From the IMG/VR virus record IMGVR_UViG_3300035520_000885, positions 1 to 64,000 of that record: a stretch of 64,000 bases of DNA. One strand, 5' to 3'. A program made the translations under genes and the position numbers. How positions within the stretch are numbered: position 1 is the first letter of the stretch; each line of letters begins with the position of its first letter. Below are positions 4,939 through 59,263 of this stretch, one piece after another. The stretch is from a virus. Its lineage: Duplodnaviria; Caudoviricetes. Below the pieces are notes generated by a model. That model saw only the letters and a program-made list of their open reading frames with translations. It did not search any database and was not told where the DNA came from.

Positions 4939-5802
4939 TTAATATAGGTCATTGGCTTTCGTCACATACTCATTCATGAGCGTCACAACTTTTCCTGCCC
5001 ACGTGTCGGTTTCACAATATGTAGGATTAATGCCTTCCGGAGTCATAGTAACTCCATAAGTATCCCTATATTTAATCATCAGTTTCCCGAAGTATTGAAT
5101 ACAACTCTCTTTACTCTTAAACGTGCAGTTGATTAGACCGAAGAGATTATTCTTCGTCGTTGCTAATGTAGATGTTCCACGTCCACTTTCTAATGCAGCT
5201 ACCGCTAAAGTATAAAACGCATTTACACCATAGGTTTCTTCGATTTCATCTATAGCACTTCCCAATCCTTCCAATCCACTGCCAGATACTAGACCATTAA
5301 TTTGGTCTGCATCTAATCCTGAGTCACTGATTATGATAGATGAGGTAGAGAACGCCTCATGATAATAGTCATACTGGGCATCTTCAACAACCTCGGTCGG
5401 ATCCTCTTCGATTACTTCTGGTTCTGGGTCGGATTCGACGGCCATCTCATATTCATCATCGGTGGGAGTTTCGATTCCATTGTCTTCTACTACCTCAGGT
5501 TCTGAACTCATTTCTGGTAAGCTGTCAAAGAAGTCAACATCAAGAGGTTGCCTTGAAACCAAATAATCAAAGCTAATAGAATCATTTGAAGATGATTCCA
5601 CACCACGTGTCGTGTTTGTTGTTGCCGCTCTCGCGGCGTCCACAGTCGAACTCATTGATTTTGTAATGCTAGGGATAGTAATTAGAATTGCCAAAATGAA
5701 AAACATGCAAATCCACATGACGGTGAAGGCCATGTCAATCGCGCTCGGTCGTTTTGTACTCTGGCGGTTGCCATTGCTTAAGTGCTTAGGCTGATACTTC
5801 AT
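4939..5802 (-). CDS. Membrane-anchored peptidoglycan glucosaminidase (GH73-like)
   Basis: N-terminal hydrophobic helix, acidic linker, C-terminal 'LAVAALESGRG...KNNLFGL...Y..D..W..KV' motifs. Confidence 0.75.
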   Translation of the reverse strand: MKYQPKHLSNGNRQSTKRPSAIDMAFTVMWICMFFILAILITIPSITKSMSSTVDAARAATTNTTRGVESSSNDSISFDYLVSRQPLDVDFFDSLPEMSSEPEVVEDNGIETPTDDEYEMAVESDPEPEVIEEDPTEVVEDAQYDYYHEAFSTSSIIISDSGLDADQINGLVSGSGLEGLGSAIDEIEETYGVNAFYTLAVAALESGRGTSTLATTKNNLFGLINCTFKSKESCIQYFGKLMIKYRDTYGVTMTPEGINPTYCETDTWAGKVVTLMNEYVTKANDLY

Positions 5803-10573: not shown

Positions 10574-10891
10574 ATGATGTCGATGACAGATTGTATTGGT
10601 GAACTCTCTGGATCGAACATGGAAACATTAGAGCAAATCGTAACCTTACAATATCGAAAATTTATTCGCTTTTATAAATTGATTTCTAAGCACTTTGATG
10701 CATTAGAGGGAATAGATTATCAATTCAAAGATCCTTCATCTTTGGATGTATATCTGCACTTTGATACTTCTAAACTGAAAGCTGTGAAATCGAAGATTAA
10801 AGAGGATATGGAGAAGTATGGTTACGAAGGAAATGTTTGCATTCGGAAACAGAGTATTTTGATATCAATTTTTATGGAGGAAGCAACATAA
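10574..10891 (+). CDS. Hypothetical protein
   Basis: 105-aa ORF with GGAGG RBS. Confidence 0.6.
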   Translation: MMSMTDCIGELSGSNMETLEQIVTLQYRKFIRFYKLISKHFDALEGIDYQFKDPSSLDVYLHFDTSKLKAVKSKIKEDMEKYGYEGNVCIRKQSILISIFMEEAT

Positions 10892-11070
10892 AGGTAATGA
10901 GTTTTGAGAAAAGCTCATTTCGTCATATTTTAATAATCTCCTAAACTGTCAGAATAGTCGCTTTGTACATCGAAAAATGAGGTAATTTCGATGTATTTGG
11001 TTATTATGGCATACTTATGTAGAAATTAGTGCAATTATCTTCGCGGTTGGTTGCACTGTTTTTATATAAG

Positions 11071-11108
11071 AAAAAAGAAGAGACCTTTTCGGAGGTCTCT
11101 TCTTTTTT
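11071..11108. terminator. Bidirectional intrinsic terminator
   Basis: aaaaaagaagagacct-tttcgg-aggtctcttctttttt. Confidence 0.8.
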
Positions 11109-50315: not shown

Positions 50316-52916
50316 TCATTTTACCATGATTCTGATATAGTTGGCTAGCCTATTATCTGCATCCGTATTATTTTTTGTATCAATAATATCTACTGGGTAC
50401 ATATTAAACATGTTATTGTGACTGATGACGAAGATTTGTTCTCCGTCTATCATATTCATCTGTTTCTCGAGTATCTGTAAGAACTTCTCTCGATTAGATG
50501 TATCCAAAGTAGAATCAATCTCATCTAACAACATGATGTTGTACTTGGAGATGGATTGATATATGAGGGCAAAAGAAAATGCTAAGGATATAAAACTTCT
50601 TTCTCCCTGGGATGCATAACAGACATCTCCAATTTCTGTTCCTTTCGTAGTATAAGGAATCTTGAACTCATCAGCAGTGATATTGAAATTCTCTATATAG
50701 AGTTCATCATCATAGACAATTTCCAGCAACTCATTTGTGATTTCCTGGATACTTTTTAGATATATCTGAATATAGAGAAGAGGAATTCCTTCCTTAGCAG
50801 ATAAAGCATTCTTGACAAGTTCCATCTCATCATATTTTGTATTATATGCTGAGAGGTCTTCATTAAACGATAAGTAAGACTTGATTCTATACTCAGTATC
50901 ATTAAACTCTTTCAACGCTTTTTCATACTCATATTTCAATCGGTCGTACTGCTGGAGGAGGTCTTTCTTTTTTCGAAAAAAATCGGTTAATTCATCATAA
51001 CTATCCTGGAGTTTCTCTACCTCCAGAACAAGTTTTTCTCTAGATTCTAATGCTTCAATAAATTCCTTATGGAATTCAATATCTTCAATGGTATCCTTTC
51101 TATCGGATTCCAGAGTCTCTATCTCTTCGTTGATCTTTGTGAGAGAATCGGCAGTTTTCTCTAATTCATCAGAGATATCTCCAATCTTATTAGAAAGATA
51201 CTCAGAATTTCCAATAGATAGTTTCGTAAGTTTCAACTTCTCTTTCAGTCTATCCAATTCTGCTAAATCCGTTTGCTGCAAATCATATTCTGTGGCAATC
51301 GTTAATAGAGAATAGATAGCTTGCTTATTGTAGATGGGTTTCATATCCACAATATTATCCATGAAAGTCTGAAGAATGAAATCTTTCTGAATATCTGTGG
51401 GAAGCTTCTCTAAAGTAGATTTGCAATCTCTCAGATTCTTCAGAAGCCCCATGATAGTCTGATGAGACATTTTCACATAGGTGACGAATGCTTCATCCTC
51501 AATGACGACATCCGGTTCCTCTGTGACCAAATCAAATAGAGTATTATAGAAATCCTTGATATCACAAGCATCAGTGCATTTTGTTTTAACAGGCCCGATT
51601 TTCTTAAGGATATACTGATACACAACTTCGGCAGCATTCTGAAATTTGCTTTTTTCAGACTTCTGCTTATTACTGGTCACATACTCAGAAATATCCGTAT
51701 TGCTCAGAATATAACTAGCAGCTTTCTTGATGGGTTCTTTTCCAAATTCATACATGGTAAGAACCATCTCAGAGCACTTATCCAGCATGACGATTAAGTC
51801 TTCCAATTCTTCCTTGGATACTTTGTTATCATACTTAGATAAAGAGCACTCTGTATCACGCTTCTGAATCTTTGCACGAAGCTCAGAAATCATATATTCA
51901 AGATTCTTAACGTCAGCAGATTCAGCTATCTTGTCAAGTTCATCTTTAATCTCATTAGAATCACAGATGAGCTTATCGTATACATCAAGAAGTTCTTTTC
52001 TTTTCTCTCTACTATGAGCGATATCAGATTCAATCTGTACTAGATTCTTCTCCAGTTCAGTAGATTCTTCTCTCATTTCTTCCAGAGATTTAGAATCTAG
52101 CTTTCCTTTCTGGACAAGTTTCTCCGCTTTCACACATTCTTTTTTCTTGATATCCAGGTTTTCCTTTACCTCAAGAATAGAATCGTACTTGGAAATCTCA
52201 TACTCAATCACATCAAGTTGACTCTTCATAGAGTCTAGAGCAGACTTCAATGTCTCAATCTGTTTCTGTCTCTCTTTTTGAGATTTCTTAGCCTCATCTA
52301 TGTCTCCAATAGAAAGCTTTGTAATCTTATCTACAGTATGAGAGATGACAGATTTGACTTCTCTCATATCTGCAACGATTTTCTTATAGTATTTCAGATA
52401 GATATCTACTTCATCAAGAATCTTTCCCATGAAGGATTTTCTGTCCGTAGTCTTGAGGTCAATGAAGTTTGTTACATTACTCCCAAGCCTAGTAAGCTTC
52501 AGATAATCCATCTCAATTCCAAGTTCTTCATGGATAATATCCTTGAAGGACTTCACATTTCCATTCACATTCAACTCATTCCCGTTTTTCTCTATATAGG
52601 ATTTTACGGTATGACTGTCCTTAGATGCAGTATAGAAATGCTTGATGACGTATTCGTCTCCATCATCTTCGATACGGATTTCTTTATATCCATCCTCCCC
52701 GCTTACGATAAGAGGATTTTCGCTTCTTACATCCAGATTACCATTTGTAGCAAACGGATGCATACAACTAAGAATACTGGTTTTTCCACTTCCATTTGGC
52801 CCAGTAATCAGTATAATCTTATTTTTACATTTCGTGAGATCAATACTAATCTCATCGCTATGATACGCAGTTTTGATATTTGCGAAGTTTCTTAATAGGA
52901 TATATGTAATTTTCAT
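50316..52916 (-). CDS. sbcC: SbcC/Rad50-like SMC ATPase
   Basis: Walker A 'GPNGSGKT', long coiled coil, signature 'ASQGE', Walker B 'LLDEID', 'ISH'. Confidence 0.88.
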   Translation of the reverse strand: MKITYILLRNFANIKTAYHSDEISIDLTKCKNKIILITGPNGSGKTSILSCMHPFATNGNLDVRSENPLIVSGEDGYKEIRIEDDGDEYVIKHFYTASKDSHTVKSYIEKNGNELNVNGNVKSFKDIIHEELGIEMDYLKLTRLGSNVTNFIDLKTTDRKSFMGKILDEVDIYLKYYKKIVADMREVKSVISHTVDKITKLSIGDIDEAKKSQKERQKQIETLKSALDSMKSQLDVIEYEISKYDSILEVKENLDIKKKECVKAEKLVQKGKLDSKSLEEMREESTELEKNLVQIESDIAHSREKRKELLDVYDKLICDSNEIKDELDKIAESADVKNLEYMISELRAKIQKRDTECSLSKYDNKVSKEELEDLIVMLDKCSEMVLTMYEFGKEPIKKAASYILSNTDISEYVTSNKQKSEKSKFQNAAEVVYQYILKKIGPVKTKCTDACDIKDFYNTLFDLVTEEPDVVIEDEAFVTYVKMSHQTIMGLLKNLRDCKSTLEKLPTDIQKDFILQTFMDNIVDMKPIYNKQAIYSLLTIATEYDLQQTDLAELDRLKEKLKLTKLSIGNSEYLSNKIGDISDELEKTADSLTKINEEIETLESDRKDTIEDIEFHKEFIEALESREKLVLEVEKLQDSYDELTDFFRKKKDLLQQYDRLKYEYEKALKEFNDTEYRIKSYLSFNEDLSAYNTKYDEMELVKNALSAKEGIPLLYIQIYLKSIQEITNELLEIVYDDELYIENFNITADEFKIPYTTKGTEIGDVCYASQGERSFISLAFSFALIYQSISKYNIMLLDEIDSTLDTSNREKFLQILEKQMNMIDGEQIFVISHNNMFNMYPVDIIDTKNNTDADNRLANYIRIMVK

Positions 52917-53003
52917 TCAAATACCTACTTTCTTCTCATATAAGAAACGGTCATCTGAAATATGAAAAAGGTGAGTTTGAATAATTTTCTACAACATAAG
53001 TTT

Positions 53004-53328
53004 AATCATTCATCTATGATTTCCCAGGTGGGAGCACTATGTTTATGCTATCAGCATGCCTGTCATGCATAAACTGAGCAGGCTTCTTCGGTGTTGTAGA
53101 GCTTTTTTGCATTTGTTTCCTTCACAGAGATAGATTGCATCTCGTTCACGCGTCTATGGATAACTCCTCCTATATGATATGTTTGGGTGCACGTTACAAT
53201 TTCTGCGGGGCATGCTGATCCGCTAGGGTAGCGGGGCCCTGGCAACCTGCTCAGTTTGACAGGAATCGCATCGAAAGATGCGTGTTAAATAAAGAAGTGG
53301 ATACAGTTGATTCTGTATCCACTTCTTA
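53004..53328 (+). ncRNA. Candidate structured non-coding RNA, family unknown
   Basis: Late promoter motif at 52993-53004, several long perfect helices, terminator at 53292-53328, and no credible + strand ORF. Confidence 0.5.
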
Positions 53329-53337
53329 AGACCCATT

Positions 53338-54603
53338 TTACTTGAGTTTGTAAATATCCTTAACGAGATTATTGACGTAATCGACATTAATCATGATAAG
53401 GATTTTATAAGTGTAGTACACATCACAATTGTGGAACTGCAATGTGTAATCATCAAAGTTGATGGTATAGTCCTTCCCATATTCAAGAAGTTTTCCTTGT
53501 TTCCTTACTCTAATTCTAAAGAAGTCCATCAAGGTGATTCCTCTATCTGTATGGAATTTGATTGCAGCTTTGATGCTATTACTCAGTAAGCTATCAATAG
53601 ATACTGAGTCATTTTTTGTCTCCAATCTGCAAGATGGAGAAGCATAAAGTTGCCAGCCCATGGGAAGGTCAATATCATCCTTAGTCAATACGTCTGTGAA
53701 GATAGGAATGATATTGGAATCGTTAGAGTTATCAATTGTGATAACCGTTGGATTCACTAAAGCGTCGGAGAACAGATAATAGAAACCAGTAGAGTAGAAC
53801 TCACATCTCACATTGAAAGAAATACTATACCGCTCAGAAATCTGTCCAACCTGAGACCCTTCATCAGGACTAAAGTTCGTGATGATAGTGTCGATATTCA
53901 CAGGATAGTACCGATAGTATTCATCGGAATTTGTGCTACCTTGAAGCTTATAAGTGATAGGGAAAGCAGAGTTAGAGTTCAGGTATTTCAGAAATTCCCT
54001 GTTGCTTCCATTCTCATCATACATAGGAATCCCTACGATTTTAGAAAGTTGCTCAAGGAGTTTCGGGGAAATGTAACTCTCCAGACATGTCTGAAGGAAG
54101 AATGGAATCTCCTGTCTGACGGCATTCCTGAAATAGTTGGCCCAGTTAATCTGCTGAATCATAGTCTGGAAAATCAATACAACATCGAAATTCATGACAT
54201 GTCGATTCATCTGATACTTGATGGCTACCTTTCTTCCTCTGTCCATAAAAAAATCTTGCAGATTCGTTCCTGCATATTTTGAATACAGGTCTCCCTGTCT
54301 TTCAATCAGCATCGTTCCATTTAAGAACTTAGATGTATCCGTCCAGTCGATTTTAGGACGGATGATAAACATAGGAGGAGCTTTCTTCAGAAACTCCTTT
54401 GGTGTACTCCGCATTTGAGAATGTGAAATCTTAGAATTCACATGGATGGTACGGAATAAATCTTTCGGAAATAGATTCAGTAACCAGTTCTGAATGAATG
54501 CCGTCACATTTCCAAATGTATGAGCCGTAGAGCACTGGCACTGTATATAATGTACAGGGTGACCCTCAAAGAATTCTTTTTTAAAATCCTCCATGATTTT
54601 CAC
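53338..54603 (-). CDS. Putative virion structural protein
   Basis: 421-aa ORF with late promoter motif at 54620-54631. Confidence 0.5.
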   Translation of the reverse strand: MKIMEDFKKEFFEGHPVHYIQCQCSTAHTFGNVTAFIQNWLLNLFPKDLFRTIHVNSKISHSQMRSTPKEFLKKAPPMFIIRPKIDWTDTSKFLNGTMLIERQGDLYSKYAGTNLQDFFMDRGRKVAIKYQMNRHVMNFDVVLIFQTMIQQINWANYFRNAVRQEIPFFLQTCLESYISPKLLEQLSKIVGIPMYDENGSNREFLKYLNSNSAFPITYKLQGSTNSDEYYRYYPVNIDTIITNFSPDEGSQVGQISERYSISFNVRCEFYSTGFYYLFSDALVNPTVITIDNSNDSNIIPIFTDVLTKDDIDLPMGWQLYASPSCRLETKNDSVSIDSLLSNSIKAAIKFHTDRGITLMDFFRIRVRKQGKLLEYGKDYTINFDDYTLQFHNCDVYYTYKILIMINVDYVNNLVKDIYKLK

Positions 54604-54830
54604 TCCTTTCTTTATTGCTTAATACAATGTTTTCTAGGCAATTTCTTGATTCCGTTCTATAAGTGAAGCATATATTATAATACTAAGACATAGAAAGATA
54701 TTCGAATAGATTTTCTAAAAGGAGATGATGACTATGTGGATGCGTGGGCCGTAGGTCTCTCCGCACATAAATACATACGGGGTGTACGTATGTATGTTTT
54801 TTGTTTTGGATATGAACAAATACGGGAGAG

Positions 54831-55274: not shown

Positions 55275-57689
55275 TTAAATCAACATGTCATCCACGTCGA
55301 TTTGTTTAGACGAAATATTAGAGGTGTGGAATTTCTTCATACCCAGTCTCAGAAGAGTAGTAGCAATCTTACTACAACCGAGACCAATATTCTGACGGTC
55401 AGTCATGTAATTCATTTCTCCAGCACAGATATTGCAAATCTTGTCTGTAGTGCAGTACATGGGAGATCTCAAATTTACATGCTTTCCAACGTATCTATCA
55501 ATTACATCAGGGGTGAGAAGTTTGGGCTTCCCACCTTCCATAATATAACGATAGAAATAGGATCTCTTATTTTTTTCAGTGATTAAGATATCCAGAGTCT
55601 TCTTGCATTGGCAATCCGTCCCATGGTCATCAATCACTTCAGTCTGCATAGCAGCCAATAGCTGCTTTGCAAGATATCCTGATTCTTGAGTTCCGCATTA
55701 CTTGTATTCATAATAGGTCGTTACTCTATTATCGCTTTATTCAAGCTGCTCTATATTACTATAGAGAGTAGACTATATCATCACTATACATCCTGTTACC
55801 AGACATATAATGCCATGCGCTTCGATTTAATGGATTTACTATAGACTAATCTCATCTATACACCAACCCAATCACTTGGCTCTACTCTACTTACTTCCTC
55901 ATATAGGTGTTTCTCCTATACTATGCTTTCGATAGTCGTTGAACGTCGATTAGAAATCATAATCTTTTGAGATATCCTTTCTTCTTCTATGAGTACGGAT
56001 ATCCTTAACCAATTCTCGTTTAACCCCAAACAATGCAGCAATCTCTGGGTCTTTATACTTCTTTAACTCAAGCATCTTACAAATCCCATGAATAGTGGAT
56101 AATGGAATGGTATTAGGAATTGAATTTCCAAGCTTCGGAAATTTGTATCTGGATGTAATGTGCTTCCAGCACTCACCAGAACGAATGTGTTGTATCGTCT
56201 TTTTTCCAATACCAAGTTTTTTGGAAATCTCTCCATTATTCATTTTCTTCATAATGCATTCGCAGATTTCAATAGCTTCCTTCTCACTAATTTTAGCAAG
56301 ATGCGCATTCTCTCCACGAATACCATCACAAAGACCTTCTCTCCAGGCGTGCTCTGTATTTTCTTTTCCTGTCACCCACTCAAGATTGAAAGCCGCGTTA
56401 TGATGTTTATTCCCATCTTTATGATTAGGAACTAAATCATCGAAGCGCTTTCCATCTTTTTTATGTCGTTTCGGAATCTCACAGAAGTACATAGCAACTA
56501 ACCTATGAATACTGAATTCTTTCTTCTCACCATTTATCTTCACATACCCTCTATAGTATATGAGATTTTGGCCAGAGAAATCATTTATTGTTTTCTTCTT
56601 GGTATTTTTAAGACGACCATGATTCGATATCTGATACTGAGTTCTACTTCCATCATCATTTAGGATCCATTTCCAAACCTCTTTGTACTGACTAAGCATT
56701 GTATTATAGATAGCGTCAGGTTGCTTTGAATTGAAGATAATTTCAAGGTTAAAAGATGTTTTAGGCATTTTGCAATACACTCCCTAATATAAGATTTAGT
56801 ATAATGTACTGCAAACATTATTTTAATAATTTCTAATCTTTCGCTGCTGATTGTCGACACTTGTCGATGTTCCAGCAATTCACATGGTTTAAAGGCTGCC
56901 ACAACTCAAAACAGCCTTCGGGTAAGCGCCTGATACCACAGCAGTACCGAAACTTGGGATGTCTTCTTTACGAATACCATCCATAAAGGAAGACCTCACG
57001 ATTTCGTACTCACCGCGGTTATTCATGGTAGCACCCTTAAATAAATTCATATTCTTGTAGTTACCGAAGTTACCACGAGCTTCTGAATTATATAGATCCA
57101 TACCAGGATCGCCCTTAAGAATCTCTTTTGCATCTGCAACAAGCTTCTTCTCAATCTTTTCAGAAGTAACAATGTCACCTGCATTGAGTTCTTTATCATA
57201 CTTCTTAAATAGCTCTTCCTTTTCTTTCTGTACAGATGGAGGAGTTTTAATTGTATTCATGGTGAAAGAAGTGGTTATGACAGAATTGAGCTGCATTCCC
57301 AGATTATCACGGTAGTCGATATATCTGAAGAACTGGTCAATCGTCATTTTATCTTCAATCAGTGCTTGTGTAAGTTTTCCTTCCAACTTACCATTTACAC
57401 TCTTCGTAATGGGTTCATTGACATAGCCCAAGACTTTCTGCAAGCCAACTCTTTCTACAATGTACTTATTATAGATGAATCTTCCTACAGTAGTTTCAGT
57501 CTCTTTATCAACGAAGTATTCTTTTGGAGTTAATACCATAGTATCAGTGGTGTTGAATCTACTTTTCTTAGTAGATTTCATATCTGCACCAATCTGAGTA
57601 GTATCTCCAAAGAGTCCAACTAAAGTGGAGAAAGATAAGTCTTCCGGTTTCAGAGAAAGCAAGTACTTCTTTTCAGAATCACTAATCAT
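55275..57689 (-). CDS. RNA polymerase beta' C-terminal fragment: complement(join(55275..55695,56911..57689)), 399 aa
   Basis: 'TTVGRFIYN', 'SEARGN', spliced bridge helix 'GAYPKAV|GTQESGYLAKQL' (RpoC TA.KTA.SGYLTRRL), 'DC', 'LRSPMYC...IC..CAG'. Confidence 0.88.
55696..56910 (-). mobile_element. Group I intron in the RNAP beta' gene
   Basis: P1 AAGGCUGU/GCAGCCUU, P10 uugaguu/aacucaa, core 'aattgctggaa', 'aatcagcagcgaa', 'ttcaacgacta', 'gatatagtct'; terminal G. Confidence 0.9.
55950..56768 (-). CDS. Intron-encoded NUMOD4-like/HNH homing endonuclease
   Basis: 'EVWK...YQISNHGR', 'IHRLVA', 'NHKDGNKHHN..FNLEWVT..EN..HA'; C-terminal repeats like the 39819 ORF. Confidence 0.9.
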   Translation of the reverse strand: MPKTSFNLEIIFNSKQPDAIYNTMLSQYKEVWKWILNDDGSRTQYQISNHGRLKNTKKKTINDFSGQNLIYYRGYVKINGEKKEFSIHRLVAMYFCEIPKRHKKDGKRFDDLVPNHKDGNKHHNAAFNLEWVTGKENTEHAWREGLCDGIRGENAHLAKISEKEAIEICECIMKKMNNGEISKKLGIGKKTIQHIRSGECWKHITSRYKFPKLGNSIPNTIPLSTIHGICKMLELKKYKDPEIAALFGVKRELVKDIRTHRRRKDISKDYDF

Positions 57690-59119: not shown

Positions 59120-59263
59120 ATGTTAATCAGAATGGGAAGCTATCAGAAGAGCGGGGGCTTGAATAAGCTCCTGGGCAGGTCTTCCAAAAAAATTAAGAAA
59201 GCCGCCAATAAGCGGCGTAAGGCTGGTGGATTTGTATTCACCGGCCTGAAGGGAGGTAAGTGA
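59120..59263 (+). CDS. 47-aa highly basic peptide (absent from the ORF track)
   Basis: GAGGAGGAG RBS; MLIRMGSYQKSGGLNKLLGRSSKKIKKAANKRRKAGGFVFTGLKGGK; fills the gap between its neighbours. Confidence 0.65.
   Translation: MLIRMGSYQKSGGLNKLLGRSSKKIKKAANKRRKAGGFVFTGLKGGK

Follow-up and report, generated by a model that had tools for sequence, protein, structure and literature searches.

A predicted late, pseudoknotted RNA with an anti-Shine-Dalgarno-like motif beside sbcC in an AR9/phiKZ-like phage

RNAs that act on ribosome-binding sites and phage RNAs that depend on a pseudoknot are both known. In Firmicutes, RNAs of the RoxS/RsaE type and RNAIII of S. aureus pair with Shine-Dalgarno (SD) regions through C-rich seeds and end in an intrinsic terminator. 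The pRNA of phi29 (RF00044), a structured phage RNA of 120-170 nt, depends for its function on a pseudoknot-type loop pairing, and in T4 the RegB and RegA proteins shut off early mRNAs via their SD regions, recognising GGAG-type ribosome-binding sites. Conserved, syntenic small RNAs have also been described in jumbo phages, namely sRNA005 of 201phi2-1 and a phiKZ small RNA upstream of gp182, with no function assigned (PMC11512511). The promoters of the Bacillus phage AR9 have been defined experimentally: early promoters follow AAATATATATTAT-N6-G and late promoters AACA-N6-T(A/G), with transcription starting at the last base, and among the mapped start sites is an active 'antisense' late site at 115851 (+), with a signal above that of its neighbours (Table S3 in PMC5312081). 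Here we analyse a 64,000-nt stretch, positions 1 to 64,000 of the 114-kb IMG/VR virus record IMGVR_UViG_3300035520_000885 (the window). In it, a 421-nt gap at 52917-53337 separates an SbcC-like gene from a gene for a 421-aa protein, both on the minus strand. Our results support the view that this gap holds a stand-alone plus-strand gene for a non-coding RNA of ~325 nt, which would run from a predicted late promoter to a terminator and combine a pseudoknotted core with an anti-SD-like motif.

The AR9 'antisense' late RNA resembles the proposed RNA in several respects: it likewise has an AACA-N6-TA promoter with no gene behind it, is convergent on a late gene and runs into the terminator hairpin of that gene, carries an unpaired C-rich stretch (CCCCUC) and lies in the same genome neighbourhood, near RNA polymerase (RNAP) and sbcC genes. 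It differs in being ~82 nt long and in having neither a long-range helix nor a pseudoknot; the covariance model described below does not match the AR9 locus, and the convergent genes of the two loci have no detectable homology. With RoxS/RsaE and RNAIII the present RNA shares an unpaired C-rich motif, complementary to GGAGG, within a structured RNA, but it has no Rfam match, is phage-encoded, predicted to be late and ~325 nt long, and is built around a covarying pseudoknot core. The 201phi2-1 and phiKZ small RNAs, compared here by description and Rfam only, differ in that they arise from 5' untranslated regions when transcription terminates prematurely, measure less than 250 nt and belong to another lineage and promoter system. 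Like the phi29 pRNA, the present RNA is a structured RNA of a phage, and it adjoins a neck gene; it does not match the Rfam model of the pRNA and has a different architecture. The role considered below would be analogous to that of RegB and RegA, but exerted by an RNA rather than a protein, and the predicted pairing with start regions did not differ between early and late genes.

A search of 52850-53400 against Rfam 15 gave no match at the gathering threshold, the hits with E up to 10 being chance-level snoRNA and miRNA matches far below it, and ARAGORN found no tRNA or tmRNA. These scans agree with an earlier reading of the DNA made from sequence alone (hereafter the sequence-only reading), which could not match the RNA to tRNA, tmRNA, RNase P or 6S. 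Literature searches on jumbo-phage small RNAs and on anti-SD sequences returned no account of a ~300-nt pseudoknotted or anti-SD-linked RNA. Phage-encoded regulatory RNAs are a known kind; a covarying pseudoknotted family with an anti-SD-like motif appears to be new.

The phage is AR9/phiKZ-like, its genome codes for split subunits of a multisubunit RNAP, and its upstream regions contain two motifs that match the early and late promoters of AR9. The proposed RNA begins at a late promoter, AACATAAGTTTA (52993-53004, +), which the sequence-only reading had also recognised; it is an exact match to the AR9 consensus AACA-N6-TA and predicts a start at its final A, 53004. The genome has 24 intergenic AACA-N6-TR motifs, 13 of which precede a same-strand start codon by 19-40 nt; no gene lies downstream of the copy at 52993-53004. 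This 12-mer occurs once in the window, and 17 matches with at most two mismatches compare with 8.6 expected. The window alone is insufficient to judge the promoter, and its validation comes from the AR9 consensus and from conservation in relatives. In 21 of 23 relatives the opposite strand carries a late promoter at a distance of 40-76 nt from the start of sbcC (0.8 on average and at most 4 in shuffles); sense-strand copies of the late motif are few and scattered. In AR9, an orphan late promoter convergent on the late gene g142 was predicted from sequence to start at 115851 (+), exactly the position given in Table S3. This shows that orphan convergent late promoters fire in the related phage AR9; for the present phage, transcription of the plus-strand RNA is a prediction. 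Two other promoter assignments were dropped: a phiKZ-type TATG promoter at TTATGC, since the phage uses AR9-type motifs, and a sense-strand early promoter at the TATATA stretch after the terminator, which does not fit AAATATATATTAT-N6-G.

The predicted transcript ends at a hairpin at 53291-53328 with a perfect 15-bp stem (53292-53306 with 53313-53327). A hairpin of this type is present at this place in every relative, where it has A and U tracts on both sides. The sequence-only reading had assigned a terminator at 53292-53328 to the RNA itself; the hairpin is there, but it begins 10 nt beyond the stop codon that closes the gene for the 421-aa protein on the minus strand and would therefore be a bidirectional terminator common to both transcripts, not the RNA's own. 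On the plus strand a U-rich CUUCUU lies within the stem and AAG follows it, and a simple terminator scan listed the site on neither strand.

The region between promoter and terminator contains two long helices that cross. In the pseudoknot helix (PK), AUCAGCAUGCCU (53050-53061) pairs with GGGCAUGCUGAU (53208-53219). In the long-range helix (LR), a U followed by AAACUGAGCAGG (53070-53082) pairs with CCUGCUCAGUUU followed by a G (53246-53258). The perfect core arms, 53050-53060 with 53209-53219 (11 bp) and 53071-53082 with 53246-53257 (12 bp), are 100% complementary, as claimed for them when a pseudoknot was first proposed, and a re-check of the sequence returned the same coordinates for all features of the sequence-only reading. 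Dinucleotide shuffles of 53004-53290 (n = 1000) gave a mean of 7.2 bp for the longest perfect long-range helix; 4 of them contained one of at least 12 bp, and none had two helices of at least 11 bp.

The remaining elements are arranged around these helices. The 5' leader (53005-53049) folds into two small hairpins that are specific to the window, the leaders of relatives being 11-27 nt long. An unpaired, conserved linker, L1 (GUCAUGCA, 53062-53069), separates the 5' strands of PK and LR; five members have G(U/A)C(A/U)UGCA at this place, and two have AGCA. A variable domain (53083-53204; 83-205 nt in relatives) carries the anti-SD-like motif and is followed, directly 5' of the PK 3' strand, by a conserved GCG (53205-53207), GCGG being invariant in the relatives' alignment. 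The segment L3 between the 3' strands of PK and LR (53220-53245; 0-56 nt in relatives) contains the hairpin CCGCUA-GGG-UAGCGG, which is optional in relatives and absent in L084. Downstream of LR, the hairpin P1, CGCAUC-GAAA-GAUGCG (53267-53282), corresponds to a hairpin that all 8 members have at this position, the sequence of its stem varying among them. Both hairpins had been named in the sequence-only reading, as had two further pairings that fared less well: that between 53059-53065 and 53257-53263 (CCTGTCA/TGACAGG) and a local pairing, gtttatgc/gcataaac, between 53041-53048 and 53067-53074 (GTTTATGC/GCATAAAC; GUUUAUGC/GCAUAAAC) are present in the window but are not kept in relatives.

Syntenic loci of relatives, phages of 250-260 kb, were retrieved via the 421-aa protein; the gap between sbcC and the gene for this protein spans 85-786 nt in them. 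BLASTN with the gap of the window found no match in the phage collection and, against the gaps of syntenic relatives, nothing above chance, so homology was established by architecture and then by a covariance model. In 8-10 relatives (68-74% protein identity) the elements keep the same order in RNA orientation: leader, PK 5' strand, 8-nt linker G(U/A)C(A/U)UGCA, U plus LR 5' strand, variable domain, GCG, PK 3' strand, optional hairpin, LR 3' strand plus G, short spacer, P1, A/U-rich stretch and terminator.

Both crossing helices keep their pairing in these homologs beside sbcC through compensatory changes. With the helix register set by the conserved anchors GCAU-AA and UU-G, the 12 pairs of LR are canonical in 8/8 sequences, with two-sided changes at 9 of the 12 positions. 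PK comprises 7-9 pairs, and 6-8 of its 9 positions show two-sided changes in the eight sequences; positions 2, 3, 4, 7, 8 and 9 covary in the five members in which the flanks (linker and GCG) fix the register, as where a G-C pair of the window corresponds to A-U in L058. A MAFFT alignment of four relatives that leaves out the window gave the same picture: 97.8% of cells pair, against 29-42% with slid partners, and 12 pairs are changed on both sides (6 in LR and 6 in PK), against 0-2 when slid, a total that 0 of 500 shuffles reach. RNAalifold predicts LR unaided from this alignment. A covariance model built from the same four relatives (R1) matched 53049-53286 (+) as the sole site in the window (E 5e-4) and the sole site in the 114-kb genome (E 2.3e-4). 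The model did not recover L022, L019 and L051 at E up to 1; these were placed by the conserved anchors, their PK register is partly fitted, and we give more weight to the five anchor-fixed members. In two complete distant relatives R1 found nothing convincing. Pattern scans were equally unproductive: CTTATGCATGACAGG had 25 matches in viral contigs, none with a complementary arm and thus attributed to chance, and TGWCATGCATAARTYGRRCRR had one match in viral contigs and four in genome contigs, none with a complementary arm or a model match. A possible similarity of the linker and helix to a conserved part of 16S rRNA was given no weight, as that helix covaries. Together, we are confident that the locus encodes a real, conserved structured RNA.

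One relative, L020, has a gap of just 104 nt, which contains the terminator, a TATATAAT stretch and the sbcC promoter region, with no RNA body; inspection revealed no clear opposite-strand late promoter there, although no scan was made. The unit thus appears to be a separable module.

Most probably, the plus strand is the RNA strand. A strand-neutral count found 74 plus-strand and 39 minus-strand wobbles at helix ends (expected share 0.52, p=0.0045). The curated helices contain 20 G-U cells on the plus strand, including the conserved U-G closing pairs of both helices; minus-strand wobbles would appear as A-C cells, of which there are 2. In other motif-bearing units, the promoter and terminator identify the C-rich strand as the one transcribed, which argues for the same strand here. 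No open reading frame (ORF) with a ribosome-binding site exists on the RNA strand in any relative, in keeping with the sequence-only reading, which saw no credible ORF on the plus strand. Nor is any sense-strand ORF conserved in relatives, and this includes the minus-strand ORF 53063-53245, whose conservation would have counted against an RNA gene. A match to a known family, a lack of compensatory changes and a conserved ORF on the minus strand could each have spoken against a new RNA; the searches found no Rfam family, changes that preserve both helices and an ORF that relatives do not share. With the conservation of the promoter, these results support the proposal of an undescribed, stand-alone structured phage RNA.

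Another conserved feature of the RNA is its C-rich motif. The sequence-only reading had noted an anti-SD-like CTCCTCCT near 53164, and the corresponding RNA motif CUCCUCCU occupies 53164-53171, partly in a hairpin loop of the predicted domain fold. CCUCC-type motifs occur in ~20 of 22 locus RNAs, including those of distant relatives, with a mean unpaired probability of mostly 0.5-0.98. Their extended consensus is (A)CCUCCU(U/A), identical to the 16S rRNA 3' end. Other orphan late-promoter units of the genome are built alike, each with a small hairpin at the 5' end, a C-rich single strand and a strong terminator, and four further orphan late-promoter RNAs carry CUCCU, ACUCCUU, CACCUCC or CCCUCCU before the terminator. 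One unit, at 10885-11106 (+), consists of AACATAAAGGTA, a 5' hairpin, a single-stranded UCGUCAUAUUUUAAUAAUCUCCUAAAC (AAUCUCCUAAAC), more hairpins and a strong terminator, and is a candidate for another small RNA of the anti-SD-like type. Outside the window, on the minus strand (G000:C1 110566-110917), late-promoter units of 82-115 nt form a tandem array of three; they contain ACUCCUU, CACCUCC and CCCUCCU, each has its own terminator, and two of them open alike with A(A/G)CGGUAG. By these predictions, the phage has at least five late small RNAs with such a motif, of which the pseudoknotted RNA is the largest.

Short counterparts exist in two cultured relatives. In AR9 (L086, KU878088.1 115749-115932) the RNA of ~82 nt has a late promoter, the C-rich single strand CCCCUC and a bidirectional terminator. 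In BpSp (L087, locus 2340-2500) a 58-nt RNA directly upstream of sbcC has a late promoter, UCCCCC and a bidirectional terminator. In the more distant relatives L001, L004, L006 (gap ~5258-5717), L007, L036, L037, L045 and L047, the RNA bodies are unrelated, but the locus keeps a late promoter on the opposite strand, a CCUCC motif, a hairpin and the shared terminator; among L001, L004 and L006 the terminator-adjacent hairpin covaries, with CCAAUU/AAUUGG in place of CCAACUAUA/UAUAGUUGG.

We consider the best explanation of the locus as a whole, at a probability of roughly 0.4, to be a plus-strand late pseudoknotted RNA that acts in trans on SD regions. The non-virion RNA polymerase of the phage would start at 53004 from the AR9-type late promoter, and transcription would end at the bidirectional terminator common to the neck-protein gene. 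In the resulting RNA, a PK of 8-12 bp would cross an LR of 12-13 bp, with the 8-nt linker between them and P1 and the terminator following. This core would enclose the variable domain, which would expose a largely unpaired (A)CCUCCU(U). By pairing with the SD regions of mRNAs, the C-rich motif would reduce their translation, and the pseudoknotted core would serve as a stabiliser or a protein-binding platform. The functional assignment itself, a late trans-acting small RNA that pairs with SD sites, is tentative.

Several observations weigh against this explanation. An RNA duplex search against 111 translation-start regions of the 114-kb record, which covers about half a genome, found best matches no better than those of shuffled seeds, and predicted pairing of the motif did not differ between start regions of early and late genes. 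The anti-SD seed would also match late mRNAs of the phage itself, which leaves specificity unexplained. The pseudoknot core occurs in only ~8 lineages, and distant relatives keep promoter, motif, hairpin and terminator with unrelated RNA bodies. As to the fold, z-scores of the minimum free energy (MFE) are of modest size and fail to discriminate between plus (mean -1.7) and minus strand (mean -2.0), L3 has 0 nt in L084, where both full helices possibly do not form simultaneously, and a local GYAU/AUGC hairpin competes with PK. Finally, on the gene-sense strand the motif is a perfect SD sequence, AGGAGG, and an ATG follows it at 4-12 nt in ~8 of 18 lineages, above the expectation from base composition. 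The pattern of AGGAGG and ATG may mean that the RNAs are complementary to whole initiation regions, or that the sense strand matters. Covariation supports each helix individually, and the geometry, with its 8-nt linker, an L3 of 0-56 nt and a competing hairpin, may allow the helices to coexist or to alternate. A search of the genome for complements of the conserved linker found none.

A wider proposal is that AR9-like jumbo phages make a set of late RNAs that copy the anti-SD sequence and mask ribosome-binding sites, reprogramming late translation, with the pseudoknotted RNA as an elaborate member whose scaffold may recruit a protein or switch between two folds. We regard this generalisation as speculative.

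The same plus-strand late RNA could instead function through its pseudoknotted core and the single strands GUCAUGCA and GCG, the C-rich motif being secondary. The core would then bind or sequester a protein, be a decoy directed at a host factor or defence, or be a structural or assembly RNA beside the neck gene. Core helices and unpaired linkers are indeed the most conserved parts of the RNA, rather than the surroundings of the motif or its position, which shifts within the variable domain, and the target searches gave no base-pairing partner. In size and complexity the RNA also goes far beyond the four short motif-bearing RNAs, and the adjoining gene encodes a neck protein. However, what distant relatives and the other orphan late RNAs have in common is the C-rich motif, not the core, and no known protein-binding RNA family matches. 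We judge a function centred on the core to be unlikely.

The convergent layout raises the question of a role confined to the locus. Convergent promoter and shared terminator might insulate a weakly expressed sbcC from strong read-through of the neck gene, by polymerase collision, by pairing with the read-through RNA or by 3'-3' overlap at the terminator, with the structure merely stabilising the RNA. This arrangement and the shared hairpin occur in every relative, and between distant relatives the RNA bodies at the locus are unrelated. AR9 has the same layout downstream of the very highly expressed late gene g142, to which an antisense RNA has been reported (PMC5312081). Yet insulation requires neither a covarying pseudoknot nor a conserved linker or C-rich motif. 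Motif-bearing late RNAs also occur in tandem on the strand of their neighbours, with nothing convergent, and L020 lacks the module. A purely local action is improbable on this evidence.

In a third alternative the functional transcript is that of the minus strand: a structured leader or read-through RNA with a strong ribosome-binding site and a tiny ORF within LR, which would control sbcC or encode a micropeptide. The AGGAGG with its typical flanks and the ATG that follows it in ~8 of 18 lineages fit this arrangement, as do the minus-strand orientation of both flanking genes and the slightly better MFE z-scores of that strand. The tiny ORFs, however, have 1-46 codons and share no length, frame or sequence, and about half, including that of the window, have no canonical start. 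No conserved AR9-type early or late promoter lies upstream, where a terminator precedes the module, and the sbcC promoter-like motif is found downstream of it. The helix wobbles turn into A-C mismatches on the minus strand, and the promoters and terminators of the other motif-bearing units assign the C-rich strand to the RNA. We therefore hold a minus-strand function to be quite improbable.

A DNA-level feature or decaying insertion that has no function as RNA, such as the inverted repeats of a miniature mobile element or sites bound by a protein, would fit the absence of the module from L020 and the arms that form inverted repeats around a variable segment, but the arm pairs cross, unlike terminal inverted repeats, their changes are compensatory at an orthologous site across diverged phages and show wobble asymmetry, and no other copy exists in the genome or the scanned collections, which makes this account highly implausible.

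Known classes of element were also considered and rejected. For a cis leader or riboswitch of sbcC, the promoter-like AAC(T/C)-N6-TA lies on the wrong side, downstream of the module and 30-45 nt from the start codon, and L020 keeps this motif without the module. In relatives, for example L022, L050, L051 and L084, sbcC is preceded by such AAC(T/C)-N6-TA late-promoter variants at the same distance; the promoter-like motif of the window's own sbcC (52940-52990, -) is degenerate, GAAAATTATTCAAAC, and the sbcC ribosome-binding site is weak. A type I toxin-antitoxin system is at odds with sense mini-ORFs of 1-46 codons that are unrelated, not hydrophobic and in about half of the cases devoid of a canonical start. 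A pair resembling TnpB and its omega RNA was dismissed because the neighbour is a neck protein with no Pfam match, and a group I intron because both flanking genes are intact. A retron was rejected as no reverse-transcriptase gene was noticed among the neighbouring ORFs, where no systematic search was made.

Both genes that flank the gap lie on the minus strand, so that each is opposite in strand to the proposed RNA. The divergent neighbour (50316-52916, -) encodes an SbcC/Rad50-like ATPase (phrog_77, SMC_N) that is closest to proteins of the Bacillus phages BpSp, AR9 and PBS1 and of Staphylococcus and Listeria jumbo phages. The convergent neighbour (53338-54603, -; phrog_21946) has its own AACA-N6-TA promoter at 54620 and encodes the 421-aa protein, which from its AlphaFold model appears to be a late structural protein of the neck or tail-terminator type. 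In Foldseek searches the model resembles the phiKZ neck chain 9xps_w (E 1e-15) and also tail terminators of the T4 gp15 type, and the closest viral model is that of an uncharacterised PBS1 protein. The protein has no Pfam match, and TBLASTN against cultured phages gave none either; its identity came from the fold. Additional contigs code for it at 65-74% identity.

Two further features of the window are independent of the locus. The RNAP beta-like gene (phrog_2962; 55275-57689, -) is interrupted by an intron-like homing element, an insertion with an HNH endonuclease ORF (55950-56780) that leaves the gene in two parts, 56889-57689 and 55275-55658. At 59189-59247 (+), Rfam reports a match to the Pseudomonas sRNA P26 with 38.9 bits, against a gathering score of 36; it consists of two hairpins, the second of them terminator-like, and is probably a structural look-alike.

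Regulatory RNAs of phages are barely charted, and in jumbo phages few small RNAs have been mapped, their function unassigned. The locus adds a structured RNA family with covariation support and a predicted promoter, start and terminator, together with a recurring anti-SD-like motif that is common to at least five predicted late RNAs of one phage and to an AR9 transcript detected experimentally. The role of AR9-like 'antisense' late transcripts thereby becomes testable, AR9 and Bacillus subtilis being a tractable pair. If the proposed function is true, a virus with its own transcription machinery would also exert global or class-specific control of translation by means of RNA.

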